A stretch of 32,000 nt of DNA from Pyrodictium abyssi (GTDB lineage: Archaea; Thermoproteota; Thermoprotei_A; Sulfolobales; Pyrodictiaceae), in NCBI RefSeq assembly GCF_036323395.1, contig NZ_AP028907.1, positions 780,001-812,000 of the forward strand, written 5' to 3'. Under the pieces are notes generated by a model. The model had not been told where the DNA came from, did no database searches, and was given only the letters and a program-made list of their open reading frames with translations. A program made the position numbers and the translations under genes. Below are positions 9,802 to 29,452 of the stretch, piece after piece. The stretch's first letter is position 1. Each line of letters begins with the position of its first letter.

Positions 9802-10272
9802 TTACTCTTCCTCCGCGACTACTATCTCGATGTGGCTATACTTCTTGAACCTGGGGGTTGAGCGGCCGAAGGCGCGTGGCATCCACCTCTTGAGAATGCG
9901 GCCCTTGTGTACAGCTATATGTACGATGCGTAGCTTCTCCGCGTCGAGGCCCTTAACCTCGGCATTGTTGGCTGCGTTCTCGAGCAGCTTGAGCAGTATG
10001 CGAGCCGCTTTGACCGGGTAGCGTCCTATCGGCCACTTGTACTTGGCGGCGAGCCCGCGGTGGTGGGCCTGCTTCCTCGCGTACCTGCGGACCGGTATCG
10101 GCTCCTCGCCCGCTGCTACACGCTCTAGGAGCTTACGTGCCTCGTCCAGCTTCATACCGCGTATGACACGGGCTAGCTCGACTATCTTCTTGTAGGATAT
10201 CGGCGCATCCCACATCATTGCCTTAGCTGAGCGCTCCTCGTCAACCCGTACCGAGTAATGCCATGTTGGCAA
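9802..10272 (-). CDS. rpl22: 50S ribosomal protein L22 (uL22)
   Basis: WHYSVRVDEERSAKAMMWDAPISYKKIVELARVIRGM pattern. The only in-frame start after the upstream stop (10291-10293) is TTG at 10272, preceded by gaggtgg. Confidence 0.92.
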   Translation of the reverse strand: MPTWHYSVRVDEERSAKAMMWDAPISYKKIVELARVIRGMKLDEARKLLERVAAGEEPIPVRRYARKQAHHRGLAAKYKWPIGRYPVKAARILLKLLENAANNAEVKGLDAEKLRIVHIAVHKGRILKRWMPRAFGRSTPRFKKYSHIEIVVAEEE

Positions 10273-10757
10273 CCCGAGGCCCCACCTCTCTTACTACAGC
10301 ATCCCCGGGAGCCGCTCACACCTCTGCACGCCTAAATAAGTGAATAGAGTGCGGCTGGCTATAATCTAGGCGATACTCCTAGAGGGGATGAGCGGGCTGA
10401 CCTGCACAGAGCAGCCGCGGTGAAGAATGCCTCTAACAGGCGACCCTCCTCTACACCGACGAGAATTGCCGTGGCCGTGCGTGGCCGGGATTGTGGACAT
10501 GAGTGTAAGGGGGGCCGTGACGCCTAGGGGTGGAGCCTCCGCGCGCTCACGGGGCCCCGGGGACACGGGGCACTCGCGCGGGCCTGCTCCCGTCTAGTAA
10601 GCGTGCTATGGCATGCCCTATCAAGTCTTCCTCCATAACCAGAGGCCGGCAGATAGAGTACAGCCTATCCCGGCAGGGATGCAGAAGAGAGGGCTACGCG
10701 TATCAGCGTATCGTAGTAAAAGAAGACTTGATTCAACATAGCCCGGGTAAGGGCCGG
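10273..10757. other. 485-nt GC-rich structured non-coding block in the slot where rpl2-rps19 normally sit (candidate ncRNA, class unknown)
   Basis: Only Arg/Pro/Gly-rich junk ORFs. An 11-bp perfect long-range inverted repeat: atcaagtcttc (10620-10630) with gaagacttgat (10722-10732). A 7-bp GC stem: ccgcgcg (10539-10545) with cgcgcgg (10575-10581). A hairpin at 10380-10435: tagagg/cctcta closing GGAUGA...GGUGAAG around the gcgg(g)ctg/cagccgc stem. Confidence 0.4.
10333..10339 (-). promoter_or_regulatory. TATA-like box (minus strand TTATTTA), candidate internal promoter for rpl22 and downstream genes
   Basis: AT-rich heptamer in otherwise GC-rich DNA, about 60 nt upstream of the rpl22 start. 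The same element could serve a plus-strand transcript instead. Confidence 0.3.
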
Positions 10758-13052: not shown

Positions 13053-13940
13053 CTAGGACTCTAGGAACATGTTGTAGATTGCCAGCGTCGCCGCTACTGC
13101 TTCCTCTACACGGACTGTCCGGGTGCCCTGGTGCGGGATAGTATTGTAGATCCTATCAAATACCTCCTCCACGGAGAAGCCCTCACTACGGGCTATCTCG
13201 TAGAGGCCTCTGTCCGGCGCACCCATGAATATCGCTATACCTCTTCTAGCAGAGACTTCCCTAGCATCCCTAGAAGCCTTCTCTGCTGTCAGAACCTCGC
13301 CTAGACGGCTAGTAGCTACGCGCAGAAGGCTCCTCGTGTTGTTCAGCGCACCCCTGAGCCCTCTTACTATGTCCGTCCTGAACCCTGTGTAGATTCTCGC
13401 TTCACCTGGCCGGAGTATACGCAGCCGTGGAGGCTTTAACGACGTGATTTCAACTAGCACTCGTTTGTCTGGCAAGCGCTCAGGCTTCCTACACTTGACG
13501 TATCTACCTAGGCCGGCATCAAGCAGAACAACATCCCCTAGATCACGTAGCACCAGCGCTTCACGTACTTCGCCTACCCGCGGCCCACCAACACCGTGAG
13601 TTGGCAGCTGCAGAGGAGGGAGAACGCCCACGTATCTTAGCTCCGGCTTTCTCGGGTAAAGCCTCTTTTTCAGATACGGGGCAGTGAGCATGTACTCTGT
13701 TACCTCTTTTATCAGTTTAGCATCCTCGTCGACACCCTCTCTGTCGATGTAAACGAGCAGCCTTGTGGCACGGAAAACAGCCAGTAGCCTTGCAAGGATG
13801 CCTATTTTTATGGTCTTTAGTAGTAGGCTATGCTCTGTAGACAAGTAGGAGGCAGGTACTGCTACCACTAGCTCTATCCTACGGGCTACCGGAGTGTCGC
13901 GACGATGCATCTCCGTCGTGCCTCTGCTGCTGGTTATCAC
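13053..13940 (-). CDS. SPOUT-superfamily putative RNA methyltransferase (COG2106 / MTH1 / DUF171-like)
   Basis: LVVAVPASYLSTEHSLLLKTIKIGILARLLAVFRATRLLVYIDREG and C-terminal RTVRVEEAVAATLAI resemble the DUF171 alpha/beta-knot family, which commonly lies directly upstream of rpl3 in archaea. ATG at 13910 may be the true start, since the codon at 13940 is GTG. Confidence 0.65.
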   Translation of the reverse strand: MITSSRGTTEMHRRDTPVARRIELVVAVPASYLSTEHSLLLKTIKIGILARLLAVFRATRLLVYIDREGVDEDAKLIKEVTEYMLTAPYLKKRLYPRKPELRYVGVLPPLQLPTHGVGGPRVGEVREALVLRDLGDVVLLDAGLGRYVKCRKPERLPDKRVLVEITSLKPPRLRILRPGEARIYTGFRTDIVRGLRGALNNTRSLLRVATSRLGEVLTAEKASRDAREVSARRGIAIFMGAPDRGLYEIARSEGFSVEEVFDRIYNTIPHQGTRTVRVEEAVAATLAIYNMFLES

Positions 13941-15427: not shown

Positions 15428-17440
15428 CTAGCTTCGTATAATCCTGCGCATGACCGGCGCTATATCCTGTGGCGCTTTTATAACGTAGAGCCGTGCGTAA
15501 TGTCTAATCTTGTTTGCCACCCTCGTGTCGTGCTTTGGGGGCAGGATTATTGTTATTCTCCATCCTCTTTGCCGTAGTTCGCGTAGAATGTCTTCGATAG
15601 GTTCGTCGGCAGCTATTGTCTGCTTGAGGTCGCTTATTAGAACCATGTGCTGTGGCATTGCAGCTCTGGCCGCTAGGCGTATAGCGTTAACTATGTCTGT
15701 ATAGCCTGCGAACTTTGTTGAAAGCACTAAGTCTACTATGCGGAGCGGGTTTACTAGTTTCAGGTTACTATACATAGTTGCGTTTTCATCGAATATTATC
15801 AGCCTTGATATGCTTGCTGCGAGTGCTGAGGCTGCTAGTACTGTGTAGACTGCGTACGGTCTCATGCTACCGCTCTTGTCTACTACTACCGTGTACTGCT
15901 TTGTAGAGTACCTCGTAATCCTGACTATAGGATTAGAGCTGAAGCGTACAATGTTCTCTAGAGTCTTGCGTATATGTAGCCGGCCTCGTGTGCTGCTAAA
16001 GCAGCTCTTGCGTGATAGCCTCATGCCGTGTTCTACACGAGCTTCTCTCCATAGACTCTTCATGAGCATTACCGCGTAGCTTCTTATCCTCCTATCGTTA
16101 GTACTGCTATATACTGTGTGTAGGAGTTTTAACGCTTCGAAGACATCCATACTCTTCACAATATTCTTCATCAACGTGTATGTGTCTCCACGTTCTGCAG
16201 CATCAAATAGTTGTTTCAGTCTAGCTATTTCCGACTCAATTATGTCCGCCAGCTTGCCGTCATATTGACTCCTTATGCTGCTCCATCGCTCTACTGCACG
16301 AGTGAACTCGTATTCGGCATACTCTAGCAGAGCATCTGTAGGCTCAACTAGGCTCTTTAAAAGATAGTTCTTTGCCTCTGCGAGCCTGTTGAGCACGTCA
16401 AGAGCCTCGTTTGGGCCTCTACCTATGCTGCTTAGTAGCCCTATTTCACGTCTGTCAAGCATCTCCGCTACTACGCCTCGTCTTGAAGCACGTGCACCTA
16501 TAGCTTTCAGCGCTATTTCGATAGCTCCGTCCTTATTGTGTGATGACATTTCCACTGCTATGTCGAGGAGTATTTCTCTTCCGAAGTCTTTGACAGCTCT
16601 TTCTGCTAGACGAGGGTTGCGCTCAAGTATGCTGCGTAGGTGGTGTCGTGATAGCATGTTTTCTTTTCGGAGTATCTCGTATACGCTTTCAGCATCACTG
16701 TAATGTTCTCCTTGGTTCATCTTTTCCTCTATAGACCTTGAAATTATTCGTTTTAGATGCTTGTTTTTGCCTGCATAACGGTATAGCTTTACAAGCTCGT
16801 CTATGCTTAGCTCCCTGGAGTCTATGTAGTTGAATAGTTCGTAGCCCATCGAGGCAACTATACCGCCGTGACGAGCTATGTTACGCTTTATCATGTCTCT
16901 GACAGCGTCCTTATAGTCTCGGTAGCGGTGGGCTAGCTGCTCTATTATCCGGCGCGCCTGGCTACTGGATACTACATACTCCCCCTTGCGTCCTCGACGT
17001 ATTATTCCTAGTAGCTTTAACCTAGCATATGCCCCCTGGGTCTTTCCGCTAGTATAGTTTCTACGTCGTAGTTTCGCTCCGTAATGGAGTCCTAGTGTAT
17101 GCAAGTCCTTCTCTATCTCGTCTTCTATGCGTTTTGCAGAGCTTCGTGGTAGACAGCACCGTTTTACTAGATCCTTTACTATTTCATTTACTATGCGTTC
17201 TTCATGCATTCGTTTTGCGTATACAGAGGAAAGGACTAGAGCTATCTCATCAGGGGTAAGCGTTTCGACGCCAGATACAGCTGCGTATAATGCTAGTAAC
17301 CGTGTGGCTTCAACTATCTCTGCTGCTGATATTCTGAGTCCTCTCTTTCTAGCTTCTACTGCTACTCCGTATGCTATTTTGCGTAGTTCTTCTCTACTAT
17401 CTCTACGGATGTAGACCGAATACTCTCTCGATGGTTTCAT
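15428..17440 (-). CDS. von Willebrand factor A (VWA) domain protein with a long helical N-terminal region (CoxE-like partner of MoxR)
   Basis: C-terminal MIDAS elements VVVDKSGSM (DxSxS), GYTD and LISDL. Start ATG at 17440 overlaps the upstream MoxR gene by 38 nt. Confidence 0.8.
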   Translation of the reverse strand: MKPSREYSVYIRRDSREELRKIAYGVAVEARKRGLRISAAEIVEATRLLALYAAVSGVETLTPDEIALVLSSVYAKRMHEERIVNEIVKDLVKRCCLPRSSAKRIEDEIEKDLHTLGLHYGAKLRRRNYTSGKTQGAYARLKLLGIIRRGRKGEYVVSSSQARRIIEQLAHRYRDYKDAVRDMIKRNIARHGGIVASMGYELFNYIDSRELSIDELVKLYRYAGKNKHLKRIISRSIEEKMNQGEHYSDAESVYEILRKENMLSRHHLRSILERNPRLAERAVKDFGREILLDIAVEMSSHNKDGAIEIALKAIGARASRRGVVAEMLDRREIGLLSSIGRGPNEALDVLNRLAEAKNYLLKSLVEPTDALLEYAEYEFTRAVERWSSIRSQYDGKLADIIESEIARLKQLFDAAERGDTYTLMKNIVKSMDVFEALKLLHTVYSSTNDRRIRSYAVMLMKSLWREARVEHGMRLSRKSCFSSTRGRLHIRKTLENIVRFSSNPIVRITRYSTKQYTVVVDKSGSMRPYAVYTVLAASALAASISRLIIFDENATMYSNLKLVNPLRIVDLVLSTKFAGYTDIVNAIRLAARAAMPQHMVLISDLKQTIAADEPIEDILRELRQRGWRITIILPPKHDTRVANKIRHYARLYVIKAPQDIAPVMRRIIRS

Positions 17441-18422
17441 CAACTATTTCCTCCTCACCAACACGTTTGTACAGTATTATAGTGGCTGCATCTACCACCT
17501 CGCTGACCGTGACTTGTTGTTTACCTCGTAGCTTGGCTAGTCGGCCAGCTATTCGCGCCCATAGTACCGTGTCTGCTGGGCCTGGCTTATACGCCGCTTT
17601 CTGGCGAAGAATGCTAACTACTTGAATCATTGCTTCTAATATTTTTGAGTCCAACTCGACGTCTATATCATATCTTAGCTTTACTATTTCTGCTTCAACA
17701 TCGGGAGGTGGGTAACTGAAGGGTATCCTTACTACTCTCCTGAGAAATGCGTCGCTTAGCTCACTTTGTGCATAATCTTCGGGATTGCTAGTAAATATTA
17801 CTTGGAATCCTTCGCCTTTTGCACGGAAGACTCTACGGAGTTCTGGGACAATTATACGACGTTTATCTATTATGTCTAGGAGCATGTTTTGGAATTCTTC
17901 GTTGCTTCGTCTTATTTCGTCTACAAGTACTCCTGTATCAAGTATTAGTGCTGCAAGGAGGGGCCGTGGTATGAAGCTTTTCTCGTTAAAGCCGTATCTC
18001 AATGCCATCAGGGGATGGAAATCACCTATAACTCTATATTCATCGTAGTTCTCGCTACAGGGTATTATTAGAGCTGGCTTTCCAGCCCAGAGCGATAGTA
18101 TAGCTTCACCTATCTCGGTCTTTCCTGTACCCGGGGGTCCCTCAAAGAGCACCGGGCGTCCCGCGAGAAATGCTGCCACAACTAATGTGACAAGTTTCCT
18201 GTCAACGAGGAGTTTATACTCTCTTCTCAGAATCTCTATCATTTTGTCTACGCTTCTTACTGGCTTCCTTTTATGCTTCTCTATTACCTCGGCGTAGATA
18301 CTAGCAACTTTCTCCTCAATACTTTCATGCATTTCATCACTATCCTTTTGACTAGGTGAACTGATCATCTCTTCAACTATTTTTTCGACATACTTTTCTT
18401 TATCGACCTTGCTTACGTCCAT
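17403..18422 (-). CDS. MoxR-family AAA+ ATPase
   Basis: Walker A GPPGTGKTE; Walker B and MoxR signature VLVDEIRRSNEEFQNMLLDIIDKRRIIVPE; sensor region FQVIFTSNPED. Confidence 0.85.
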   Translation of the reverse strand: MDVSKVDKEKYVEKIVEEMISSPSQKDSDEMHESIEEKVASIYAEVIEKHKRKPVRSVDKMIEILRREYKLLVDRKLVTLVVAAFLAGRPVLFEGPPGTGKTEIGEAILSLWAGKPALIIPCSENYDEYRVIGDFHPLMALRYGFNEKSFIPRPLLAALILDTGVLVDEIRRSNEEFQNMLLDIIDKRRIIVPELRRVFRAKGEGFQVIFTSNPEDYAQSELSDAFLRRVVRIPFSYPPPDVEAEIVKLRYDIDVELDSKILEAMIQVVSILRQKAAYKPGPADTVLWARIAGRLAKLRGKQQVTVSEVVDAATIILYKRVGEEEIVDETIERVFGLHP

Positions 18423-18614
18423 TTTTGCACCCTTCTGACACCCTAGATTACTGGAGCCAGCTACATTATAGCTGTCTAACCTACAGCAGGTTTGCCACCA
18501 TGAGGGGTGTTGGCCTCGTACACACTTATTAGCCTCACTACAAGCTTATTGTCTACACAGCATTACTTGCTTTAGTACATAGCTAGAGTTGCTAGACTTT
18601 ATGCCGAGGCTGCT

Positions 18615-19097
18615 ATGCGACGAACTACCGGGGTATATAGGGCTATGAGTAGAATACGGCGCAGTAAAGACGACAATATCATTTATAGTGTCTGGATTCG
18701 TAGAGGACCAGATATATTCCATTACGACATAGTCTTTGAAGACGACTGTATAAGGCTTGTGTATCTAGGCGAGTACTGGGAGCGTGTTAGGCCAAAGACT
18801 GGTCTACAGCGACGTGTTGACATGTTTATATACTCCATAAGGAAGCGAAGGGAACGCATTTACGGAGAAGGAGAGAGACCAATGGTTATTAACTACTGCG
18901 ATATATCAAGTTATGAGATTGTTAAGCCTCGCCCTGCTGTATCTCGTGAAGACTTGTCTCCAGGTGCCCTGGAGCTGCTACTGCGTGATGGAAAGCGTAT
19001 TCGTATAGAGTTCTCTCCGAGGGTGTACGAGATCGTGAAGTCAGCTGTAAAGAAGTATGTAAGAAGCGGCATTGAACGGTGTAAAGGTAGGAGATAG
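18615..19097 (+). CDS. Hypothetical protein (about 150-160 aa), divergent from the MoxR gene
   Basis: Intact ORF with balanced composition. Internal ATG at codon 11 fits the ctttatg TATA-like box at about 18597. No family recognised. Confidence 0.45.
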   Translation: MRRTTGVYRAMSRIRRSKDDNIIYSVWIRRGPDIFHYDIVFEDDCIRLVYLGEYWERVRPKTGLQRRVDMFIYSIRKRRERIYGEGERPMVINYCDISSYEIVKPRPAVSREDLSPGALELLLRDGKRIRIEFSPRVYEIVKSAVKKYVRSGIERCKGRR

Positions 19098-19874: not shown

Positions 19875-19879
19875 AAAAA
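19875..19879 (-). terminator. T5 tract about 30 nt downstream of the rps19 stop
   Basis: Minus strand reads gtcaTTTTTacc. Consistent with the rpl2-rps19 unit ending here rather than running into rpl22. Confidence 0.3.
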
Positions 19880-19908: not shown

Positions 19909-20376
19909 CTACTTCAGTGCTACATGTAGGCTGCTCCTTGTGGCCTTGAGGCCGGGCTCTCCATGCTGTACCTGGCGGCATGTTGGGCTGAACTCGCCGA
20001 GGTAGTGGCCTATCATTTCTGGCGTTATGCGCACTGGGACGAACTCCTTACCGTTGTATACGGCTATGGTCATTCCAATCATTTCTGGCAGTATTATCAT
20101 ATCCCTTACATGCGTCTTTACTACTACCTTTTTGCCCTTGAGTATCTTCTGCCGTGCCTTGCGTATCTTCCAGAGTAGGCGGCGCTGCGGGTCTGTTAGA
20201 CCTCTCAGTAGGCTTCTCCTCTGCCTTGCTGGTAGGAGCTTTATGAATATGTCCATTGGCATCGAGAGTAGCTCTTCTAGTGTGTAGCCGCGGTAGCGGA
20301 ACTTCCGCCACTCCGGCGGCAGGGTCTCAAGCCACTTCTTCATTTCCTCATCCAGCTGCGGCTTCACAGCCTGCAT
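19909..20376 (-). CDS. rps19: 30S ribosomal protein S19 (uS19)
   Basis: [14 protein letters not shown]...[44 protein letters not shown]. Confidence 0.93.
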
Positions 20377-20424
20377 ATTCTACACCCCATGTGGGCGAGG
20401 CTAAACACGTATGGGGGTTTAATG

Positions 20425-21141
20425 CTACCTCTTCTTCCGGCCTGTCGAGCGCGCAGCAATATGGCCGACTTTTCTGCCTGGCGGCGCATCTCTGGAGACT
20501 GTTGTTGGGAAGCTTGGGCTCTGGTGGCTGCCACCGCCGTGCGGGTGGTTTACAGCGTTCATGGCTACACCGCGTACACGTGGCCATACATGGGCCTTAG
20601 CCTTCCACTTATAGTATGCTGCACCAGCCTTGAGGAGCGGCTTCTCTAGGCGACCAGCGCCAGCGGCTATACCTATGGTTGCCCTAGCATCGTTTGGTAT
20701 CTCTTTGACTTTTCCGCTGGGGAGCTGTACTATCGTCTTATTACCACTACGGCCCAGTATGACTGCATAGGCGCCCGACGAGCGCGCTAATTTCCCGCCA
20801 TCGCCCGGCCTAATCTCCACATTGTATATCTGCGTACCTTCAGGAATCCTACCGACCGGGAGTATGTTGCCATTGGCGGGCTTCGCGTCCGGCCCAACCT
20901 CTATGATCTGGCCAACATACATGCCCTCAGCCGCTGGTATCCAAAATTCTTCACCGTTCTCCAGCACTACATGAGCGAGTGGAACCCAGCGGCCTGGATC
21001 GTGCACGAGCTCTACTACGCGCCCTCTCAGCGTTACTGGTGTCAGCGGCGGATACTTCGCTGGCGCTGGGTGCAGCCACGGCTTGCTGCGATATACTGGT
21101 GAGCCCTTACCCCTACGCTGTACTATCAAGCGCTTACCCAT
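20425..21141 (-). CDS. rpl2: 50S ribosomal protein L2 (uL2)
   Basis: MGKRLIVQRRGKGSPVYRS...VRGVAMNAVNHPHGGGSHQ. Confidence 0.96.
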   Translation of the reverse strand: MGKRLIVQRRGKGSPVYRSKPWLHPAPAKYPPLTPVTLRGRVVELVHDPGRWVPLAHVVLENGEEFWIPAAEGMYVGQIIEVGPDAKPANGNILPVGRIPEGTQIYNVEIRPGDGGKLARSSGAYAVILGRSGNKTIVQLPSGKVKEIPNDARATIGIAAGAGRLEKPLLKAGAAYYKWKAKAHVWPRVRGVAMNAVNHPHGGGSHQSPSFPTTVSRDAPPGRKVGHIAARSTGRKKR

Positions 21142-22537
21142 AGCGTAGCACCCTTCCCCGGCTGCTCGTCCCCTGTATGCTCGGACTCTTAACTGTTATC
21201 GGTACGGGGAGTATTCTAGCTGGAAAGGCTCTTTGTGACTGCTGGTAACGGATCAATGCCTCACCGACACCAAGCCTGGGAAGATACTCTAAATCCTCAT
21301 AGGCTATTCCACTAAATCTCTTCACATCTTCTAGATAAGTCTCATCAAGAGAACCAAACACTACTACGTTGTTAGAGTTATTCCATACCTCGGGACTAAA
21401 ATCTGCTGGATGTTGTGATAGTAGGACTAGGCTAATGCCACTACTCCTTCCTTCCCTGATAAGTTTTTTCACAACCTCACTATTACTGACTCTCCAGAAT
21501 TCATCTACTATGAGAACAGATCTTGCGTACATACTCTGCAGCATAGAGAATATACTAGCCAATGTAGATTCAAGGTGAATATATTTCTCGTTTTCACTAA
21601 GATATTTTAGGTCAATTATTAGAATATTGCTGAATTTGCTGGTAACCATGCTAGCTAAAAATATGCGTTGATGAGCATGCTCATCTTCCAATAACACGCG
21701 CTCAGCTAGACCAGTCCATGACAAGGTGTCCCACATATCTCCCTTTGGGTCAACAGCAACTACTCTAGCGTCATAGAGTAAAGTAGCCATAATTGCAATA
21801 AGAGCTGCAAGTGTAGTTTTCCCCTTACCCGTGGGACCTACTACTATTGTATGCTTAGCTCCCCTCTCATCCCAGAGAGGAAGTCCAACAACTTTTCCTA
21901 GCAGTAGGTCAAAGCCTATAGGTACAGACTCGCTCCCTAAGTATTCTCCTACTGTATATGGGTATTGCATCCACTCAATACCTTTGCTTACAAGTAGGCT
22001 TCGAGGTTGCACTACATGCTTATTATAGCTTTTTAAAAAATTTGGATCTACGCATTTAAGCCTAGGTTTACAGCCTAGAAGGGAGAACGCGTCTACTATG
22101 CCGTGGTATTCCTCTTCTATAGTCCCAGGCCTCCCACATACAACTATATGTAATGATGGTTCAACTGGATCACCATAGTCTGTTATCTTTCCATAAACTT
22201 CTCTTAGTATTTTTAATTTGGTTTTTGCACGCATGTTGTTTGGATTTCGTTCTAGCTCTACTTCGTAGGAGAGTATCTTTGACTCTATTACTCTGGCAGC
22301 ATAGCTGTTCTTAACAGGTCTGTAAAGTAGGAATATTCCACAAATTTTCCTATCGAGCAGTCTTAGTCTATCGCTTAGAAGCTTTGAGAAACACGACTCA
22401 TCGCCTCTAATTTCTACAATAATGCCCACTAGGTCCGACGCTATATCAAAGGTACAGAGACTGCTAACATGCTTGGGTGTACCTTCTACCACCGCGCGCA
22501 ACCTGTCTATATATTTTGATATACTTTTAATCACCAT
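21134..22537 (-). CDS. VirB4/TrbE-like P-loop ATPase of the HerA/FtsK superfamily (CedB-like), no TM segments
   Basis: Walker A VVGPTGKGKTT, followed by VVAVDPKGDMW. Walker B LIVDEFWRV resembles the DEAW motif of VirB4. About 230-aa N-terminal non-ATPase domain. ATG at 22537 lies 4 nt after the stop of the upstream 53-aa ORF; the track start at 22567 is TTG. The stop overlaps the rpl2 ATG. Confidence 0.7.
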   Translation of the reverse strand: MVIKSISKYIDRLRAVVEGTPKHVSSLCTFDIASDLVGIIVEIRGDESCFSKLLSDRLRLLDRKICGIFLLYRPVKNSYAARVIESKILSYEVELERNPNNMRAKTKLKILREVYGKITDYGDPVEPSLHIVVCGRPGTIEEEYHGIVDAFSLLGCKPRLKCVDPNFLKSYNKHVVQPRSLLVSKGIEWMQYPYTVGEYLGSESVPIGFDLLLGKVVGLPLWDERGAKHTIVVGPTGKGKTTLAALIAIMATLLYDARVVAVDPKGDMWDTLSWTGLAERVLLEDEHAHQRIFLASMVTSKFSNILIIDLKYLSENEKYIHLESTLASIFSMLQSMYARSVLIVDEFWRVSNSEVVKKLIREGRSSGISLVLLSQHPADFSPEVWNNSNNVVVFGSLDETYLEDVKRFSGIAYEDLEYLPRLGVGEALIRYQQSQRAFPARILPVPITVKSPSIQGTSSRGRVLRYG

Positions 22538-22541
22538 ACTA

Positions 22542-22703
22542 TCACCAGTATGCAGTTTTTCTGACAATTACGAACAAGGCTATATTAATCACCGAAAGTA
22601 TCATTAAAATTACATTTTTCGAATCTAATGCATGAATAACACCATATAGGGATAAACCTAGTGCTATGTATAGCGACTTTCTAAGTGTTAGAGTTACTTG
22701 CAT
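22542..22703 (-). CDS. Small two-TM membrane peptide, 53 aa (CedA2-like by size, topology and position)
   Basis: Manual translation: MQVTLTLRKSLYIALGLSLYGVIHALDSKNVILMILSVINIALFVIVRKTAYW. A ggtg SD lies about 9 nt upstream. Stop TGA at 22542 sits 4 nt before the ATPase ATG. Missed by the ORF track (<60 aa). Confidence 0.45.
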   Translation of the reverse strand: MQVTLTLRKSLYIALGLSLYGVIHALDSKNVILMILSVINIALFVIVRKTAYW

Positions 22704-22730
22704 CACTAAACACCATAGCTAATGTTCTGA

Positions 22731-24182
22731 TTAATCAAATATGATACGAGGAGACGATGCGCCCAGAACTCTAGCGAGATTTATAGATACCATGGACATT
22801 ATTGTCAAGTACGAGAATACTGTTATTGGAAATGCTGTGCCATAGACTATGTAGTACACTATCGCATCCTCAGTTGTCATATTAGGATATGTGACTCCCT
22901 CGCTTAGTTCTAGCTTGTAGATACTCGAAATACTATAGTAGTCTATGTTTTTAGTGAATCTCATATCTATTTTATCTACTCCATTTGGAATTTTTAAGCT
23001 GAGTATCTTTGTATAAACCTTTACGCCTCTCCAGGGAGTCGTCAGTTCCAACATTCTATATTCTTCAAAGAATACACTGTCTGGAGAAATCATTTCAATG
23101 TCGTTCTTGCCTAGCGATGATATTGTTATCATTATCCAGTCTGACATAGGTTCACATGTTACGTCTAGAATATTATCAGTCTGATATACTTTAGTTATCT
23201 TACATCCACTTATAATTAGTAGGCCTACTGGCTCTACAAATATAGCATCTTCTTCTACTGTTATGTCTAGACGGTACTCGGCTTCATCAAGTTCGTATGT
23301 AAGTTTAGCGTCTTCGGGTACCTTGACTGTCGGCCTGGATGCTCCTAGGATGTGGGCAAGGTATTCTACTTCTACACGGTAATCTCCGCTTGGCAGCATT
23401 TTTAGTGGCTTAGTTACATAGTATCCTCCATCCTCGTGAATAACGAATCTAAAAGACCCACCACTGTTTACGTCAATGAAACGAACCAGTCCTGCTAACG
23501 GCTGGTGTCCATATGCATCCTTGACCACTCCCCATAGGTGAATAGGCTCTCTACTCTCATTGGCACTGATGTATGTGCTAAGATACCCCGTAGCCAGGCT
23601 TTCATATATCATTGTTATCCAGTGCGGCAGGAATGGCAGCATTATATTACTGGCTATCACGAATGCGAGAAGTGAAGCACCAGCATTCCTGCCTATTCTA
23701 AAGGGTATAGCTATAAGAGCTATTGATAGAGCTGTTAGCTTTGCTTTTGCTGTTGAGATTATACTAGCTATTACTATGACTGTTGCTGCTGCAGTAAGCA
23801 TACCATAGTGCACTAATACCATTGGGAGCACGTATATGCTGAAGAACTTACCTATTATACTGTGTACACTTGCGAGTATTCCTACTAATAGTCGCGTTAT
23901 ATACTCCATTAGTATTATAGCTTTCATTCGAATCTGCATATATGATATTATGTCGTTTATACTGTATCCACTTAGGCTCGCTATAGCATCAGCAAACTTC
24001 AGTAGAGCAACATAGAGTGTGATTAGTATGCTAACCCACAGACTGTCTTGTATGAGTGTCGGCGCCCAGCGCTTTACACTACGCAAAGGTATGGGAAGCA
24101 TGTACACTAGCACTCCTATATAGTATGTTAGTACTGCTAGCTGTGCTGCAATCAGCAAGAAATACTGCGGAAGCGTCATCAT
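22731..24182 (-). CDS. Polytopic membrane protein (>=6 N-terminal TM helices, beta-rich ectodomain, C-terminal TM); CedA/VirB6-like candidate
   Basis: Residues 1-200 are nearly continuous hydrophobic helices. Residues about 215-290 (WGVVKDAYGHQPLAGLVRFID...DGGYYV...LPSGDYRVEVEY) resemble a carboxypeptidase-regulatory/prealbumin-like beta sandwich. Terminal hydrophobic helix AIVYYIVYGTAFPITVFSYLTIMSMV. Confidence 0.55.
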   Translation of the reverse strand: MMTLPQYFLLIAAQLAVLTYYIGVLVYMLPIPLRSVKRWAPTLIQDSLWVSILITLYVALLKFADAIASLSGYSINDIISYMQIRMKAIILMEYITRLLVGILASVHSIIGKFFSIYVLPMVLVHYGMLTAAATVIVIASIISTAKAKLTALSIALIAIPFRIGRNAGASLLAFVIASNIMLPFLPHWITMIYESLATGYLSTYISANESREPIHLWGVVKDAYGHQPLAGLVRFIDVNSGGSFRFVIHEDGGYYVTKPLKMLPSGDYRVEVEYLAHILGASRPTVKVPEDAKLTYELDEAEYRLDITVEEDAIFVEPVGLLIISGCKITKVYQTDNILDVTCEPMSDWIMITISSLGKNDIEMISPDSVFFEEYRMLELTTPWRGVKVYTKILSLKIPNGVDKIDMRFTKNIDYYSISSIYKLELSEGVTYPNMTTEDAIVYYIVYGTAFPITVFSYLTIMSMVSINLARVLGASSPRIIFD

Positions 24183-24194: not shown

Positions 24195-24476
24195 TTAACC
24201 TGTAATGTTGTACATTACTGGCGGTGGAGAAGCCACTGAACTGACTATGTAGGATACTAGCGCGAATATAGAGGAGCCCAGGGCTAGCCAGAATGCAGCC
24301 CATATGGCATCTTCTATAAGGTCTTGCCCTGCTCTCTTCACCCTCATGAAGGGTACAGGAGATCCTTTTAGTAGCCATCCAACACTCCACGTGAGTAGGA
24401 ATAAGCCCCATGCTATACTCATGACCTTTATGGTTAACGTGTTTATGAATTCTACTACGCTCACGTCTCCCCTCAA
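24195..24476 (-). CDS. Small two-helix membrane protein, VirB2/TrbC/CedA1 pilin-like topology
   Basis: Hydrophobic helix VMSIAWGLFLLTWSVGWLL, basic loop KGSPVPFMRVKRAGQD, hydrophobic helix AIWAAFWLALGSSIFALVSYIV. Start ambiguous: TTG at 24476, GTG at codon 5 or ATG at codon 19. Confidence 0.5.
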   Translation of the reverse strand: MRGDVSVVEFINTLTIKVMSIAWGLFLLTWSVGWLLKGSPVPFMRVKRAGQDLIEDAIWAAFWLALGSSIFALVSYIVSSVASPPPVMYNITG

Positions 24477-24637: not shown

Positions 24638-27505
24638 TTATTTTCGTTTTTCGAGCTTATGCTTGTATTTATGATAATTTACCTCTGCCTCTATGAGAGC
24701 TCTGTAAAACGCCTCTTCGCCAAACACAAGTTTTTGCAGAACCCGCTTTGCTGTATACGTGCCGATGCCCGTTGATACAAGGGCTTCTACAGCCTTTTTG
24801 CCGTAACTCAGTACGAGATTAGCAGCATCCATGACTTCGCGAACAGCCTTTCTCTCTGCCTGGGAGAGTTTGGCTCCACGTCTCTGTTTCTCGATTAATG
24901 CCCTAGCTGCTTCTATGCGCTCTTTGGCTAAGGCAGGATATATCATTCGTGCACCGCAGCGCGGACACTCTATATTATTGCTGTTAACGTGTAGTAGCTT
25001 TCTTGTCCATATCTTTCCACACATCAGGCAGAGAAATATCACGTCTTTTGACGCTATCCTACGTTTTATTGCTTCAACAAGTATTGTCGACGGTAGACCA
25101 TCCGTCGTTACGCGGTCCCCGAATCGTGCTTCTGCTATAGCGTCCTCTGTGATAGGCGACGGTGTTTTCAAACTTACAGCCTTTACTTCTATCCTACCAG
25201 TCCTTATTTCCTCGAGGAACTTGTGCAGAACGTATGTATCCACCTTTCTTACACTTATTTCTCTGTATGCTTCCTCTCCGAGTATAGTGTCCCTCAGCTT
25301 ATGGATAATCGTCTTCACATGTCTTATGTCTGTATTGGCTGTTCTCTTTACCGCTCCGCTTCGAAGAGCTACATAGAGCATTATCCACTGGAATAGTTTG
25401 CTCTTAAGGACAGCTCTACGCAGTAGCGAATCCACCTCATTACTAGGTAGGCTAGTTATTTTCCGCAGTACATCGGCTATGAAGTCGGCGCGTTCTACTG
25501 AAGCGAGTCTTATAGCTACAATATAGGGTGTGCTTGCTGTTACAGGTGGATAACCCTTTACTTCGGATATATAAGCCGAGATCAGATATTCTAGTGCCTT
25601 GTTGCCGCGGCTACCAAGGAAACTGTATATAATGAATACATCGCCATAGTGCTCGATAACTACTCTCCTATCGGTTGGAAGAGGAAGACCCTTCGACATA
25701 TGCTTTAATATTTTATTTTGCACTAATTTTCTAGAATTATCGTCAAGTGGGTATTCGCTTAGCACTTTTTCGCCCTGTTTTTCGTACCTGCGGAGTATAC
25801 TGCCAATCTCGCGGGCAACATTATACTCTACGGGGATTAAGTCACCCTCCCATGCCGGAGGTATGAGCTTGTCTTCTTTTGTGTGCCTAACTCTCACACT
25901 GTCATCTGCAATATCTACTACCTCCCAAACCTGCCCTCCTAGTACGAATTTGGCCCCTTGTTCTAGTGTCGTAACGAACTCTTCGTCTAGGACGCCGAGT
26001 TTCCTTCCTGTACCTACTTCGTAGACATTGTACTGCTTCGTATCGGGTATCATTGTGACGCTGAAGTAGTAGCTCTTAGCCATGGGACCCATACTGATTT
26101 TTCTGTCCCTGACTCTTGCTATTCTGGATGCCTCCATGTAGCTTATCACTTGGTATAGCTCGTCTAAGCTTAGGTCCTTATAGTAGCCGCTGCACGTTAC
26201 AATACTGTAGATGGTGTCTATGTCTATTTCGCCTAGCTCTATGAGCATACCGGTAATCTGGTGTATAAGTGCATCATATGGTTTGATAGGATACTGTAGT
26301 CTTTCTAAGTTGCCTCGCATCGCTCTAGCAGCTATAACAGCAGACTCCAGTATATCGAATATGTTTGTGGCTGCTACTATTATGCCCCTAGATATGCCAC
26401 CTATTCTGTGCCCGGATCTGCCTACACGCTGAACTAGTTTCACTACTTGTCTAGGAGACATGTACTGTACTACAAGGTCTATTGCGCCTACGTCGATACC
26501 TAGTTCCAGACTAGATGTAGCTACAACTGCCTTCACTTTGCCGCTTCGAAGTCTTTGTTCAGCATCTACACGCTTTTCGCGGCTTAGACTGCCATGATGT
26601 ACCTCTATTCTGTCCTCGCCCATAGCTTGTTTCAGCAATGCACCTAAGACTTCCGCTGTATCGCGCGTGTTAACGAATATTATCGAGTTGCCAGGATTCT
26701 CCGACACTACTTTCTTTATTAGCTCCACTCTAGCCAGTGTTTCTCTCTGGGACTTTAGCCCATCATCCCTATTGCTACCACTGCTATGAATTGCTGGGGC
26801 GACGACAGTTATGTGGTAGCGCTTTACGGCTTTCTCTGTCTCAACTATTCGGACGTATCTATCGCCCATGAGTAGCCTAGCCACTGTATATGGATCACTA
26901 ACTGTAGCAGATAGTCCTATAATTTGGAGTCTATTTCTCGTATATAGTCGTGCTACGCGTTCAATAGCCAGGGATAGCTCTGCTCCACGCTTGCCTGAAA
27001 CAAGCTCGTGTACCTCGTCCACAACTATGTACTTAAGATTGCTGATATTTTGGCGGAATTTTTCCACGCTCAATAGGAAATAGAATGACTCGGGTGTAGT
27101 CACCATTACGTGGGGAGGGTTTTCAAGGAACCGCCTTTTCTCGGCCGCAGTACTATCTCCATGTCTGACCTCTAGTGTAAGCCTTACATCTGAAGCTATA
27201 TTTATCATGCGCTTAAATATATCACGGTTAAGACTACGCAAGGGCGTTATATATACAGCATAGATGCCTTTTGACTTAGAGCCTATAAGCCTTGAGAATA
27301 TGGGGAGAAGTGCGGCCTCAGTCTTACCACTACCAGTGGGAGCGATAGCCAGTACATGGTTTCCTCGAAGAACCTCGGGTATCACCTTGCTTTGTATCTC
27401 CGTCGGTCTTGTATAGCCATACCTTAACAGTACATGTTGGAGTAGCGGGTGAAGTAGTCTAAACACCCCACTTACGATGCGTCTTTCATTGCGCTGCGCC
27501 GCCAT
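24638..27505 (-). CDS. lhr: Lhr-family (large helicase-related) DEVH-box SF2 helicase with C-terminal zinc ribbon
   Basis: Motif I APTGSGKTEAA, II VVDEVHEL, III LSATV, VI VQRVGRSGHR. Long Lhr-type C-terminal extension. CLMCGKIW...CPRCGARM zinc ribbon and a GIGTYTAKRVL HhH-like element. Confidence 0.88.
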   Translation of the reverse strand: MAAQRNERRIVSGVFRLLHPLLQHVLLRYGYTRPTEIQSKVIPEVLRGNHVLAIAPTGSGKTEAALLPIFSRLIGSKSKGIYAVYITPLRSLNRDIFKRMINIASDVRLTLEVRHGDSTAAEKRRFLENPPHVMVTTPESFYFLLSVEKFRQNISNLKYIVVDEVHELVSGKRGAELSLAIERVARLYTRNRLQIIGLSATVSDPYTVARLLMGDRYVRIVETEKAVKRYHITVVAPAIHSSGSNRDDGLKSQRETLARVELIKKVVSENPGNSIIFVNTRDTAEVLGALLKQAMGEDRIEVHHGSLSREKRVDAEQRLRSGKVKAVVATSSLELGIDVGAIDLVVQYMSPRQVVKLVQRVGRSGHRIGGISRGIIVAATNIFDILESAVIAARAMRGNLERLQYPIKPYDALIHQITGMLIELGEIDIDTIYSIVTCSGYYKDLSLDELYQVISYMEASRIARVRDRKISMGPMAKSYYFSVTMIPDTKQYNVYEVGTGRKLGVLDEEFVTTLEQGAKFVLGGQVWEVVDIADDSVRVRHTKEDKLIPPAWEGDLIPVEYNVAREIGSILRRYEKQGEKVLSEYPLDDNSRKLVQNKILKHMSKGLPLPTDRRVVIEHYGDVFIIYSFLGSRGNKALEYLISAYISEVKGYPPVTASTPYIVAIRLASVERADFIADVLRKITSLPSNEVDSLLRRAVLKSKLFQWIMLYVALRSGAVKRTANTDIRHVKTIIHKLRDTILGEEAYREISVRKVDTYVLHKFLEEIRTGRIEVKAVSLKTPSPITEDAIAEARFGDRVTTDGLPSTILVEAIKRRIASKDVIFLCLMCGKIWTRKLLHVNSNNIECPRCGARMIYPALAKERIEAARALIEKQRRGAKLSQAERKAVREVMDAANLVLSYGKKAVEALVSTGIGTYTAKRVLQKLVFGEEAFYRALIEAEVNYHKYKHKLEKRK

Positions 27506-27565
27506 AGTATACTATTTCACCCTTGATTCCAGCCCTTCTACGCTATAAATCTGGGGCACCAGATT
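27506..27565. promoter_or_regulatory. Divergent promoter region between lhr and the membrane HerA-like ATPase
   Basis: 60-nt spacer with two AT-rich boxes: tatactattt at 27509-27518 and tataaat at 27544-27550 (atttatag on the other strand). Confidence 0.4.
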
Positions 27566-29452
27566 TTGGGCGGACCGGCCACTAGCTTATTTACTCGTCT
27601 ACTACTATTAGCCGTACTATCATCCCTAACTGTGGTGCTGATTGTCTGGGGCAATCAAGCAGATTACTTAGTAGCAACGACCGCTGTAGCGGCAATCATG
27701 GCCTTAGTATCCAAGTCGCTGGTAATTGCCGCGATAGCTGTTATCTATAATATTCTGCTAGGACTTTATTCTGCCCTGCTACCGCTCCCAGCATTTCTAC
27801 ACAACATGTCATCGGTCACAGTAGTGTACCCTAAGCTAAGCTACACCGTCCTAGCTATACTAGTGGCAATACTAGTCTCCGGCACTATACTTGTTGCTAG
27901 AATGTTCTCGCTCCTACGCTCCAGACCCTTCGTCGACACATTTCTGAGAAACCTTATGTACACACTAGCAAGGGACACGATAAGGTACAGTCTATGCTCT
28001 ACAAGAAGGCGTGCAGCTCTATCACTGTTACTCTCGTCTGTCATAGTTTACTATATTCTGCTATACACTTATCCGCCTCGCTACATCAACGATATGCTGT
28101 ACTACCTGCTACTCTCTGCATCCCTATTGCTTACAATACCCGCTATGATAGTGTCATCGTTTGATAAATCTGCTGCAGCTGCTCTCGTACCAGTACTCGC
28201 AGCTGCAGTAGTGCTACCTCAGCCATTGCTGCTAGCAGCGTTAGTATCAGTAATTCCAGCCGAGACGCTACACTCAACATTAAGAATTGCACTACGCGAC
28301 GGCTACAGGATAGGTAGCCTCGACGCAATCCTAGTATACATGCCGACTATTAGGTACAATATAGCCGGATCAGTAACTATTAGTGCTACACGTACCTGGT
28401 GGTCACCAGCTTACCCCCCGGTAGAGTACAGGGTCAAGACCAGTATAGATGAGAACCCGCACATACTCGTAACCGGGACCACCGGCTCCGGGAAATCATT
28501 TACAGCAATGAAGCTCGCCGCCTCAATCCTGGAGGAGAAGCAGAAGCGTAACGGACCAATACTAGTCGTTATAGATCCTCACGGCGAGTATGCGGATATG
28601 TTCCGCGGAAAACCAGGCATAAAGATAGTAGACGCATCCGAGGAGGCACCAAACCCTCTAGAGCTTGTAGGGCAAAGCCCTCGCGAAAGAACTCTAGAGC
28701 TCGTAGAGCTGGTGTCGGAATTCTACAGGCTAGGCCCTATTCAGTCACGAATACTAGAAGAGGCCATCTTGCTATCATACGAGAATGCTGGTATAAGAGA
28801 CGACGACCCCTTATCGTGGAGTAACCCGCCACCAACAATTAGAGACGTTGTCAGGATCCTTGAAGACATGTCCAAGCGAGACCCGCGTGCCAGTGTATTA
28901 GCTATGTATATCTCGTCTCTTGCATCTAAGGCTTTCAGCAAGAGCCGGCACGTGTCATTTCCCGTACCAGGAGCCGGCACACATGCAGTAATCTTCGACC
29001 TTTCAAGACTATCCACAAGAGAACAAATGGTTCTATACACAGAAACCATACTGTATAAGTTATACTACCTTGTTAAGAAACTGGGCCCTTCTAGTGATCT
29101 GCGTTATATACTTCTAATAGACGAGGCACATTTATTCGCCCGTAAGACCTCAAGGAGGCGTCAAATCATATCCCTTATAGCGGCCGAGCTGCGGAAGTAC
29201 GGCGTCATGCTGATAGTTGTTACACAGAAGGCCAGCGAACTCGACAAGACTATAATAGCAAATATCGGCACATTTATATGCTTAAAACACACTGACTCCA
29301 ACGAGTCAAAGTTCATGGCAGAGACTGTATCACGCAACCCTGTGGACGATTCCAGGGACGCACTCGCATACACCATTGCAACACTACCTAAAGGATACAT
29401 AGTCGTAGGGGACGTAGGGCTAGACACACCCCTCCTAGTCAGGCTTGGATAG
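27566..29452 (+). CDS. Membrane-anchored HerA-like (DUF87/COG0433-type) ATPase with a 6-7 TM N-terminal domain
   Basis: Residues 1-230 are hydrophobic helices. Walker A LVTGTTGSGKSF, VVIDPHGEYADMF (DPxGEY), Walker B LLIDEAHLFA and VVTQKASELD are typical of HerA/DUF87. Start uncertain (TTG at 27566). Confidence 0.8.
   Translation: MGGPATSLFTRLLLLAVLSSLTVVLIVWGNQADYLVATTAVAAIMALVSKSLVIAAIAVIYNILLGLYSALLPLPAFLHNMSSVTVVYPKLSYTVLAILVAILVSGTILVARMFSLLRSRPFVDTFLRNLMYTLARDTIRYSLCSTRRRAALSLLLSSVIVYYILLYTYPPRYINDMLYYLLLSASLLLTIPAMIVSSFDKSAAAALVPVLAAAVVLPQPLLLAALVSVIPAETLHSTLRIALRDGYRIGSLDAILVYMPTIRYNIAGSVTISATRTWWSPAYPPVEYRVKTSIDENPHILVTGTTGSGKSFTAMKLAASILEEKQKRNGPILVVIDPHGEYADMFRGKPGIKIVDASEEAPNPLELVGQSPRERTLELVELVSEFYRLGPIQSRILEEAILLSYENAGIRDDDPLSWSNPPPTIRDVVRILEDMSKRDPRASVLAMYISSLASKAFSKSRHVSFPVPGAGTHAVIFDLSRLSTREQMVLYTETILYKLYYLVKKLGPSSDLRYILLIDEAHLFARKTSRRRQIISLIAAELRKYGVMLIVVTQKASELDKTIIANIGTFICLKHTDSNESKFMAETVSRNPVDDSRDALAYTIATLPKGYIVVGDVGLDTPLLVRLG

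Follow-up and report, generated by a model that had tools for sequence, protein, structure and literature searches.

This report concerns a 32-kb stretch of the genome of the hyperthermophilic archaeon Pyrodictium abyssi, family Pyrodictiaceae (contig NZ_AP028907.1, positions 780,001 to 812,000), which we call the window and which is the part of the genome that was seen. Two genes for ribosomal proteins, rpl2 (L2, 238 amino acids (aa), positions 20425-21141) and rps19 (S19, 155 aa, 19909-20376), lie here on the minus strand directly behind cedB, the gene for an ATPase of the Ced DNA-import type, and not in their usual place between the genes for L23 and L22. Both are recognized by Pfam (Ribosomal_L2_C, E 2e-45; Ribosomal_S19, E 3e-33). 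The start of L2 is secure because its N-terminus, MGKRL, is kept in all relatives. For comparison, a scan for L2 with one genome per GTDB species gave 80 loci, onto which the proteins of the window were mapped by tblastn. The 11 closest loci (L001-L011) come from Pyrodictiaceae or from Hyperthermus metagenome-assembled genomes (MAGs), and their L2 is 77-90% identical to that of the window. Junctions were compared across these loci and the window, a set of 12 genomes that represents about eight independent lineages, and gene order was followed wherever each contig reaches.

The ATPase and L2 genes overlap. The TAA stop codon of cedB (21136-21134) and the ATG of rpl2 (21141-21139) share the 8-nucleotide (nt) string ATGGGTAA (21134-21141, minus strand), as an earlier examination of the letters alone, hereafter the sequence-only reading, had noticed. 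That reading also placed a Shine-Dalgarno (SD) motif, GGTG, inside the 3′ end of the ATPase gene, and one is present there as GGGTG (21149-21153, minus strand), 8-12 nt before the L2 start. A GGGG(T) motif occurs at −13 to −6 in all 12 genomes. There is no terminator between cedB and rpl2. Folding of the junction RNA (z = −1.47) revealed no structure masking the L2 start or its ribosome-binding site, and thus no RNA structure that would enforce coupling. The oligo-T tract reported after rps19 is likewise real (TTTTT, 19875-19879, minus strand, 29 nt past the S19 stop) and is likely where the L2-S19 unit ends; six of 11 relatives have a T4-T5 tract behind S19. Yet such runs are not rarer than chance, since three runs of five or more T residues were observed in 5 kb and 3.5 were expected from shuffled sequences, and we rejected the tract as a statistically notable feature. 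Two similar tracts lie inside cedB (T6 at 22040-22035 and T5 at 21661-21657), where they could attenuate read-through.

The gene preceding rpl2 (21134-22537, minus strand) encodes a HerA/VirB4-type ATPase of 467 aa if translation begins at the ATG at 22537, which follows GGTGA; a TTG at 22567 is also open and would give 477 aa (open reading frame (ORF) 21134-22567). Its best NCBIfam match is DNA_import_CedB (E 3e-23, 82 bits against a cutoff of 700), which outscores CedD (30 bits) and HerA. It also matches Pfam AAA_10 and a TrwB/TraG P-loop, carries the Walker A motif GPTGKGKT and finds HerA and TrwB in the PDB. Farther upstream on the same strand is a small hydrophobic ORF of 54 aa with one or two hydrophobic segments (22542-22706) in the position of cedA2. 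It is preceded by a gene for a polytopic CedA-like membrane protein of 483 aa (22731-24182) and by cedA1 (24195-24476), which encodes a VirB2-like pilin of 93 aa and is the first gene of the operon.

CedA1 scores 129.5 bits against a cutoff of 100 with Ced_CedA1 (NF041797), matches the Aeropyrum pernix pilin (PDB 8DFU) with a phmmer E value of 7e-25, and has the two hydrophobic segments of a small two-transmembrane pilin. The gene adjoining it encodes a protein whose N-terminal ∼190 aa match Ced_CedA (E 7e-36, 124 bits, profile positions 5-193 of 259), with six to eight hydrophobic segments in residues 8-185 and a C-terminal extension of ∼290 aa beyond the profile. The match lies below the equivalog cutoff of 330. 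CedA and CedB both fall short of cutoffs trained on Sulfolobales and are therefore taken as distant orthologues. A 57-aa ORF occupies the place between cedA and cedB in a Desulfurococcaceae locus (L016); neither it nor the 54-aa ORF of the window matches any family. Judged from these matches, the ATPase gene before rpl2 is cedB-like and the last gene of a complete cedA1-cedA-orf54-cedB operon, and the assignment of the upstream genes to a DNA-transfer system by the sequence-only reading is borne out.

The same window also contains the place from which L2 and S19 are missing, a point absent from the sequence-only reading. On the minus strand, a gene for a PF02598 RNA methyltransferase (13053-13940) precedes L3-L4-L23 (10758-12960), the head of the canonical operon, in which L23 is an 86-aa ORF (11018-10758) that matches the L23 of all relatives. 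After L23 there is a 485-nt gap (10273-10757) that has no ORF and a GC content of 61%, and the gap is followed by rpl22 (9802-10272), S3 and spc-type genes. The L2-S19 pair thus does not stand between L23 and L22; it sits 9.6 kb upstream on the same strand (21141-19909). No remnant of L2 or S19 was found in the gap, where the best tblastn match has an E value of 0.013, spans 13 residues and lies on the wrong strand. Tandem duplication with loss and a cut-and-paste event are therefore indistinguishable as routes. A TATA-like box, CTTATTTAGG, lies in the gap at 10331-10340 (minus strand), and its form CTT(T)ATTTAGG is conserved 45-68 nt before L22 in the window and in loci L001, L009 and L010. 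The genes from L22 and S3 onward appear from this conservation to have had their own promoter after the excision.

The sequence-only reading had proposed comparing the neighbors of rpl2 in related genomes. By tblastn, L2-S19 follows cedB in all 11 Pyrodictiaceae loci, in the order cedA (o483)-cedB-L2-S19, with the methyltransferase, L3, L4, L23 and L22 farther downstream. The shared order runs PCNA, o150, HerA(-), Lhr, cedA, cedB, L2, S19, a methyltransferase, VWA/MoxR, o160, o92/CxxC, the PF02598 methyltransferase, L3, L4, L23 and L22, and the whole 18-kb neighborhood is syntenic in the 11 loci. Five further metagenome contigs have L23 directly beside L22. By comparison, ∼60 other archaeal loci from Thermococci, Thermoplasmatota, methanogens, Altiarchaeota and Desulfurococcaceae keep the canonical order, methyltransferase-L3-L4-L23-L2-S19-L22-S3, so the position of L2-S19 is as unusual as had been supposed. 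That the pair has been relocated is nearly certain. Since the order is common to all 11 Pyrodictiaceae loci, it is an old, fixed trait of the family, and neither an artefact nor a recent event. The identity of L2 and S19 to their relatives (77-91%) is as high as for L3, L4 and L23, which marks them as native genes.

The site to which the pair moved was already a boundary between ced and ribosomal genes. In the Desulfurococcaceae locus L016, the order cedA1 (110 bits)-cedA-57-aa ORF-cedB is followed directly by an intact methyltransferase-L3-L4-L23-L2-S19-L22 operon. CedB-like tblastn matches lie just upstream of the methyltransferase and L3 in L017 and L018, and cedB has the same position in L012, L013 and the metagenome contig L107. 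Because ced directly precedes an intact ribosomal operon in Desulfurococcaceae, the adjacency of the two is ancestral. The change amounts to a block interchange, in which L2-S19 took the first place after cedB that the methyltransferase and L3 had held.

Related lineages have broken the cluster in other ways. In L012 (8635-12265) and L013, both from uncultured Desulfurococcales, L2 stands alone behind the gene for histidyl-tRNA synthetase (HisRS) and converges on aminotransferase-L23-L4-L3. S19 is not found within 10 kb of this isolated L2, and the cluster was broken there independently. L2 is isolated in L014 too. In L015 (Thermoprotei MAG JAEMPT010000116, 5285-9333), a MoxR (AAA_5)-VWA gene pair lies between L2 and S19 on the same strand. 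The differing ways in which related lineages opened these same junctions suggest that L23|L2 and S19|L22 may be fragile points in this order.

The composition of the DNA changes at the junction. In 400-nt windows, the GC content is 0.412 at 21201-21600 and 0.575 at 20801-21200, which places the step near 21200, where the sequence-only reading had seen it. The hand counts given there were less accurate: the ced genes range from 0.35 to 0.47 per 400 nt instead of 28-38%, and ∼60% is slightly high for the ribosomal genes. By gene, the GC content is 0.42 for cedB, 0.41 for cedA, 0.58 for L2 and 0.53 for S19, and other non-ribosomal genes of the window have values of 0.44-0.47. At third codon positions (GC3), L2 and S19 reach 0.57-0.65 versus 0.36 for cedB. 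The step might be read as a sign of acquisition. However, L2 lies 5-15 GC points above cedB in every relative, at locus GC contents from 41% to 63%. An offset that recurs over this range reflects a difference between ribosomal and other genes and not a foreign island.

Is the overlap of cedB and rpl2 a device for coupling their translation? In the 12 genomes, the stop of cedB and the start of L2 are −8, −29, −29, +42, +1, +83, +63, +54, +3, 0, +1 and 0 nt apart. The pair in the window does have the features of a coupled pair, with ATGGGTAA shared by stop and start and GGGTG at −12 to −8, but the arrangement is not kept at the orthologous junctions. Since the spacing differs among genomes, from −29 to +83 nt, the overlap is not a conserved design, and the tight translational coupling emphasized by the sequence-only reading does not hold up as one. 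The stop/start overlap looks incidental.

A different feature of the junction is conserved. A TTAA-type A/T box lies 35-51 nt before the ATG of rpl2, and examples include GTTAAGAG in the window and CTTAAGAAAG, GTTTAAAC and AATTAAAG in relatives. The box of the window occupies 21186-21193 (minus strand), 51 nt before the L2 ATG and inside cedB, and would be the TATA-like element of a promoter for rpl2-rps19; a search upstream of rpl2 for such an element had been proposed along with the sequence-only reading. Eleven of the 12 genomes have TTAA at −58 to −32, where the background frequency, measured for each genome in its own cedB, is 0.01-0.25, and the genomes with the box include some whose cedB has a GC content of 58-61%. 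When one genome is taken for each of the approximately eight lineages, the product of the background frequencies is ∼1e-9, a number to be discounted because neither the motif nor the search window was fixed before the data were seen. Within these genomes, the L2 box is similar to that of the L3 promoter (GTTAAAAG and related sequences). In the window, L001 and L003, the CedB proteins are only 32-35% identical, yet nucleotide identity has peaks of 0.70-0.77 over the box (positions −71 to −41) and of 0.67-0.80 over the leader from −26 to −1.

The box may also account for the irregular end of cedB. The last ∼20 codons of cedB in the window read across the candidate promoter and leader of L2. In L002 and L007, the stop codon of cedB is the TAA of the TTAA box itself. 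Frames that escape this TAA run through the GC-rich leader to the next stop, which lies at or beyond the L2 start. The variable tail of CedB and its overlap with L2 are explained by this continuation of the frame.

The best explanation for these patterns combines relocation, a separate promoter and an incidental overlap, and we give it as a whole a probability of about 0.7. The gene orders show that rpl2-rps19 was cut from the universal L3-L4-L23-L2-S19-L22-S3 operon in the ancestor of the Pyrodictiaceae and placed again 9-10 kb upstream, directly behind cedB, at the ancestral boundary between the Ced and ribosomal operons; how the pair is expressed and why the genes overlap are inferred. The main transcription of the pair would come from its own archaeal promoter, with a TTAA-type box ∼50 nt before the ATG and within the last ∼60 nt of cedB. 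GGGTG would act as the Shine-Dalgarno motif for translation, and the oligo-T tract behind rps19 would terminate the transcript. The 8-nt overlap would then be a by-product, and the poorly conserved tail of CedB would be the cedB frame reading the promoter and leader of L2 until a stop is met. With no terminator to separate cedB from L2, transcripts could run through and ribosomes could start again; ced transcripts that do not end within cedB probably continue into L2-S19, with possible re-initiation at the overlap, and this contribution would be minor and not conserved. Co-transcription with translational coupling would be at most a side route. The sequence-only reading had offered co-transcription with the upstream operon or a promoter buried in the ATPase coding sequence, and the position and conservation of the box favor the latter. 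Taken separately, an internal promoter for rpl2-rps19 in the 3′ end of cedB appears probable.

Several observations weigh against this explanation. The promoter is deduced from the position and conservation of a motif that was picked, together with its search window, post hoc, and the 12 genomes amount to about eight independent lineages. The box of the window, GTTAAGAG, is a weaker TATA match than CTATAAAT and GATAAATA elsewhere in the window. The DNA conserved among the window, L001 and L003 also encodes a conserved peptide, PITVK, and part of the nucleotide footprint could therefore reflect constraint on the protein. In eight of 12 genomes, the cedB stop overlaps the L2 start or lies within 3 nt of it, a pattern that selection for termination-reinitiation coupling would produce as well. 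The lack of a terminator leaves co-transcription possible, and a view of 32 kb leaves room for a second copy of L2 and S19 elsewhere in the genome.

In the leading interpretation of the sequence-only reading, L2-S19 would belong to the ced operon as its distal genes, with no promoter other than that of cedA1, and L2 would be translated by termination-reinitiation at ATGGGTAA. The common strand, the 8-nt overlap, the SD motif within the cedB 3′ end and the absence of an intergenic spacer or terminator fit this interpretation, as does the close contact of stop and start in two-thirds of the genomes (8/12). Against it, the other four have spacers of 42-83 nt bearing TATA-like boxes, and the conserved TTAA box and SD motif are placed like a promoter and leader. 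The T6 and T5 tracts in cedB would lower read-through, and no RNA structure hides the ribosome-binding site so as to enforce coupling. Moreover, L2 and S19 are required in a 1:1 ratio to some 60 further ribosomal proteins, unlike the Ced components, which form membrane machinery, and the GC3 of L2 and S19 is of the ribosomal type (0.57-0.65) in contrast to that of cedB (0.36). We therefore regard this interpretation as unlikely. A related idea is that the junction is regulatory, either because ced read-through and re-initiation at ATGGGTAA supply a meaningful share of L2 and S19 or because TATA-binding protein (TBP) and transcription factor B (TFB) form a roadblock that throttles cedB. If the former is true, then expression of DNA import would be linked to ribosome synthesis; if the latter, the two factors bound at a strong, constitutive promoter of L2 in the cedB 3′ end would limit the expression of full-length cedB. 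We consider a regulatory junction of either type improbable.

The remaining alternatives concern the origin of the arrangement. A recently acquired, low-GC ced island that split the ribosomal operon would explain the rise in GC from 0.41 to 0.575 at the junction and the low identity of Ced proteins (26-37%) between relatives whose L2 is 77-90% identical; it would also suit the description of Ced as a domesticated derivative of a type IV secretion system in PMC9905601. However, gene order from PCNA to L23 is the same in the 11 Pyrodictiaceae loci, and in Desulfurococcaceae, as in two other lineages, the ribosomal operon directly behind ced is unbroken. The GC of the ced genes (0.41-0.42) is near that of other non-ribosomal genes, the offset recurs in the relatives, and no tRNA, integrase or flanking repeats were found in the window. 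The acquired or accessory operon suggested by the sequence-only reading is thus very improbable. The 32 kb in view would also accommodate the idea that the pair next to ced is an extra, paralogous copy and that the working copy is elsewhere, but this is more doubtful still: the canonical slot is empty with no pseudogene trace, identity to the relatives parallels that of L3, L4 and L23, both genes are intact with SD motifs and a ribosomal-type composition, and the genome scan gave one L2 locus for each relative listed. A chimeric join in assembly or binning could give an abrupt composition change exactly at the junction. Given that 11 independent MAG loci, which seem from their record titles to stem from several projects, and a Joint Genome Institute (JGI) metagenome contig (L097) all have this junction, and that the complementary empty L23|L22 slot is present in the window, L001, L009, L010 and five further metagenome contigs, such an artefact is scarcely conceivable.

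The locus combines two known kinds of features, namely a ribosomal cluster broken up in one lineage and a probable promoter within the end of the gene before it. As in the canonical S10-type cluster (PF02598 methyltransferase-L3-L4-L23-L2-S19-L22-S3-L29 and so on), no gene is missing, all lie on one strand in a span of 13 kb, L2 and S19 are still adjacent, and the usual order holds on either side of the break. It differs in that L2-S19 follows cedB and is separated from the operon downstream by 5.5 kb of unrelated genes, and that the vacated slot is a noncoding gap of 150-485 nt with a TATA-like box of its own for L22. Overlapping stop/start pairs coupled by termination-reinitiation occur in operons of archaea and bacteria, and Huber et al. 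2019 (Nat Commun) are said to have described such pairs. The 8-nt ATG…TAA overlap and the SD motif inside the upstream gene resemble such pairs; here, however, the genes have no functional relation, orthologous junctions do not keep the overlap, and a promoter-like element lies just upstream. Internal transcription start sites are common in compact archaeal genomes, as in the primary transcriptomes of Sulfolobus, Thermococcus and Haloferax. The present case shares with promoters in the 3′ ends of upstream genes a TATA-like box and an SD leader inside the preceding gene on the same strand, and differs from them in being predicted from comparative sequence analysis. No transcriptome of a Pyrodictiaceae member was found in the literature, and no description of the L2-S19 rearrangement was found in the searchable literature.

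The order L3-L4-L23-L2-S19-L22 is among the most conserved gene orders in prokaryotes. The clean removal of L2-S19 throughout a family is a rare kind of genomic change, by which Pyrodictiaceae can be recognized. It makes a neat evolutionary marker and opens no new mechanism. For annotation, the lesson is that a stop/start overlap and a GC step alone indicate neither operon membership nor horizontal transfer. The junction also offers a testable case of a promoter embedded in a coding tail.

The Ced genes of the window, which are known here from sequence, follow the order cedA1-cedA-small transmembrane ORF-cedB seen for the Ced system of Sulfolobales and Aeropyrum (CedA1, CedA, CedA2, CedB and the later CedD, which is described in PMC11868833). 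As noted, CedA1 is above its NCBIfam cutoff, and a CedD-like ATPase gene is 5 kb away. In contrast to that system, CedA and CedB are far under their equivalog cutoffs, CedA carries its ∼290-aa C-terminal extension, and all genes are clustered with an Lhr helicase alongside. The sequence-only reading had argued that coupling ribosomal proteins to a UV-induced unit would be unusual. This argument is imported from Sulfolobales and is not supported here: in the available text of PMC9905601, the A. pernix CedA1 pilus is recovered from the extracellular fraction of cultures and UV treatment is unmentioned, which suggests that strict UV induction as in Sulfolobus need not apply.

An Lhr-type helicase gene (955 aa, 24638-27505, minus strand) lies immediately upstream of cedA1, and a divergent gene for a HerA-type ATPase whose best NCBIfam match is CedD (27566-29452) is ∼5 kb off. 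The Pyrodictiaceae loci retain both genes here, and L016 has Lhr as well. The full Ced machinery thus appears to form a cluster with a helicase around 24638-29452. PADLOC returned only generic HerA and mad8 matches for the ATPases and BrxH-like matches for Lhr, with no sign of a defense island. Between genomes whose L2 is 77-90% identical, CedA is 26-37%, CedB 27-37%, Lhr 43-51% and MoxR 67-74% identical. The fast evolution of the Ced proteins is consistent with surface or partner-specific machinery.

A gene pair for MoxR (AAA_5) and VWA proteins occupies 15428-18422 in the window and lies 1-2 kb downstream of S19 in Pyrodictiaceae. The block that comprises VWA, MoxR and o160 (15428-19097) is inverted in the window relative to all nine relatives that cover it, and no inverted repeats were found at its borders in the window. 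The repeated linkage of such a pair to L2/S19, in Pyrodictiaceae and in L015, recalls the AAA/MIDAS module of eukaryotic midasin in 60S biogenesis, and by this analogy one could speculate that the MoxR-VWA pair is a ribosome-assembly factor.

The gap between L23 and L22 (10273-10757) contains a conserved candidate for a structured RNA at approximately 10598-10497 (minus strand). Its parts are a 7-bp stem, a tandem GA/AG that resembles a kink-turn, an apical CCCCG/CGGGG hairpin and a 19-mer that does not vary, GGAGGCUCCACCCCUAGGC; the majority of copies also pair GGAG with CUCC at the base, with ACA after it. Among 15 copies, there are 14 consensus pairs, six of which have compensatory changes. 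No Rfam family reaches the gathering threshold anywhere in the window, no tRNA gene was found in it, and the candidate has only a weak match to the Pyrobaculum H/ACA-like small RNA RF02802 (E 0.46). It is located in the L23|L22 slot in the window, L001, L002, L004, L009, L010, L083, L084, L090, L114 and L115, and between cedB and the methyltransferase-L3 genes in L107; further copies occur in L088, L092 and L103. The element may be an H/ACA-like guide RNA that is always beside the ribosomal operon.

A G variant of the 19-mer is found ∼20 times, without the hairpin, in an AT-rich repeat in which it is flanked by GTAAAGTTTTATACAG and TCAAACCCTTACCC. These copies come mostly from metagenome Ga0126336 (loci L081, L082, L085-L087, L089, L091, L094, L096, L098, L100, L102, L104-L106, L110-L113, L117 and L118). 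The repeat is a different element that shares the invariant 19-mer with the RNA candidate.

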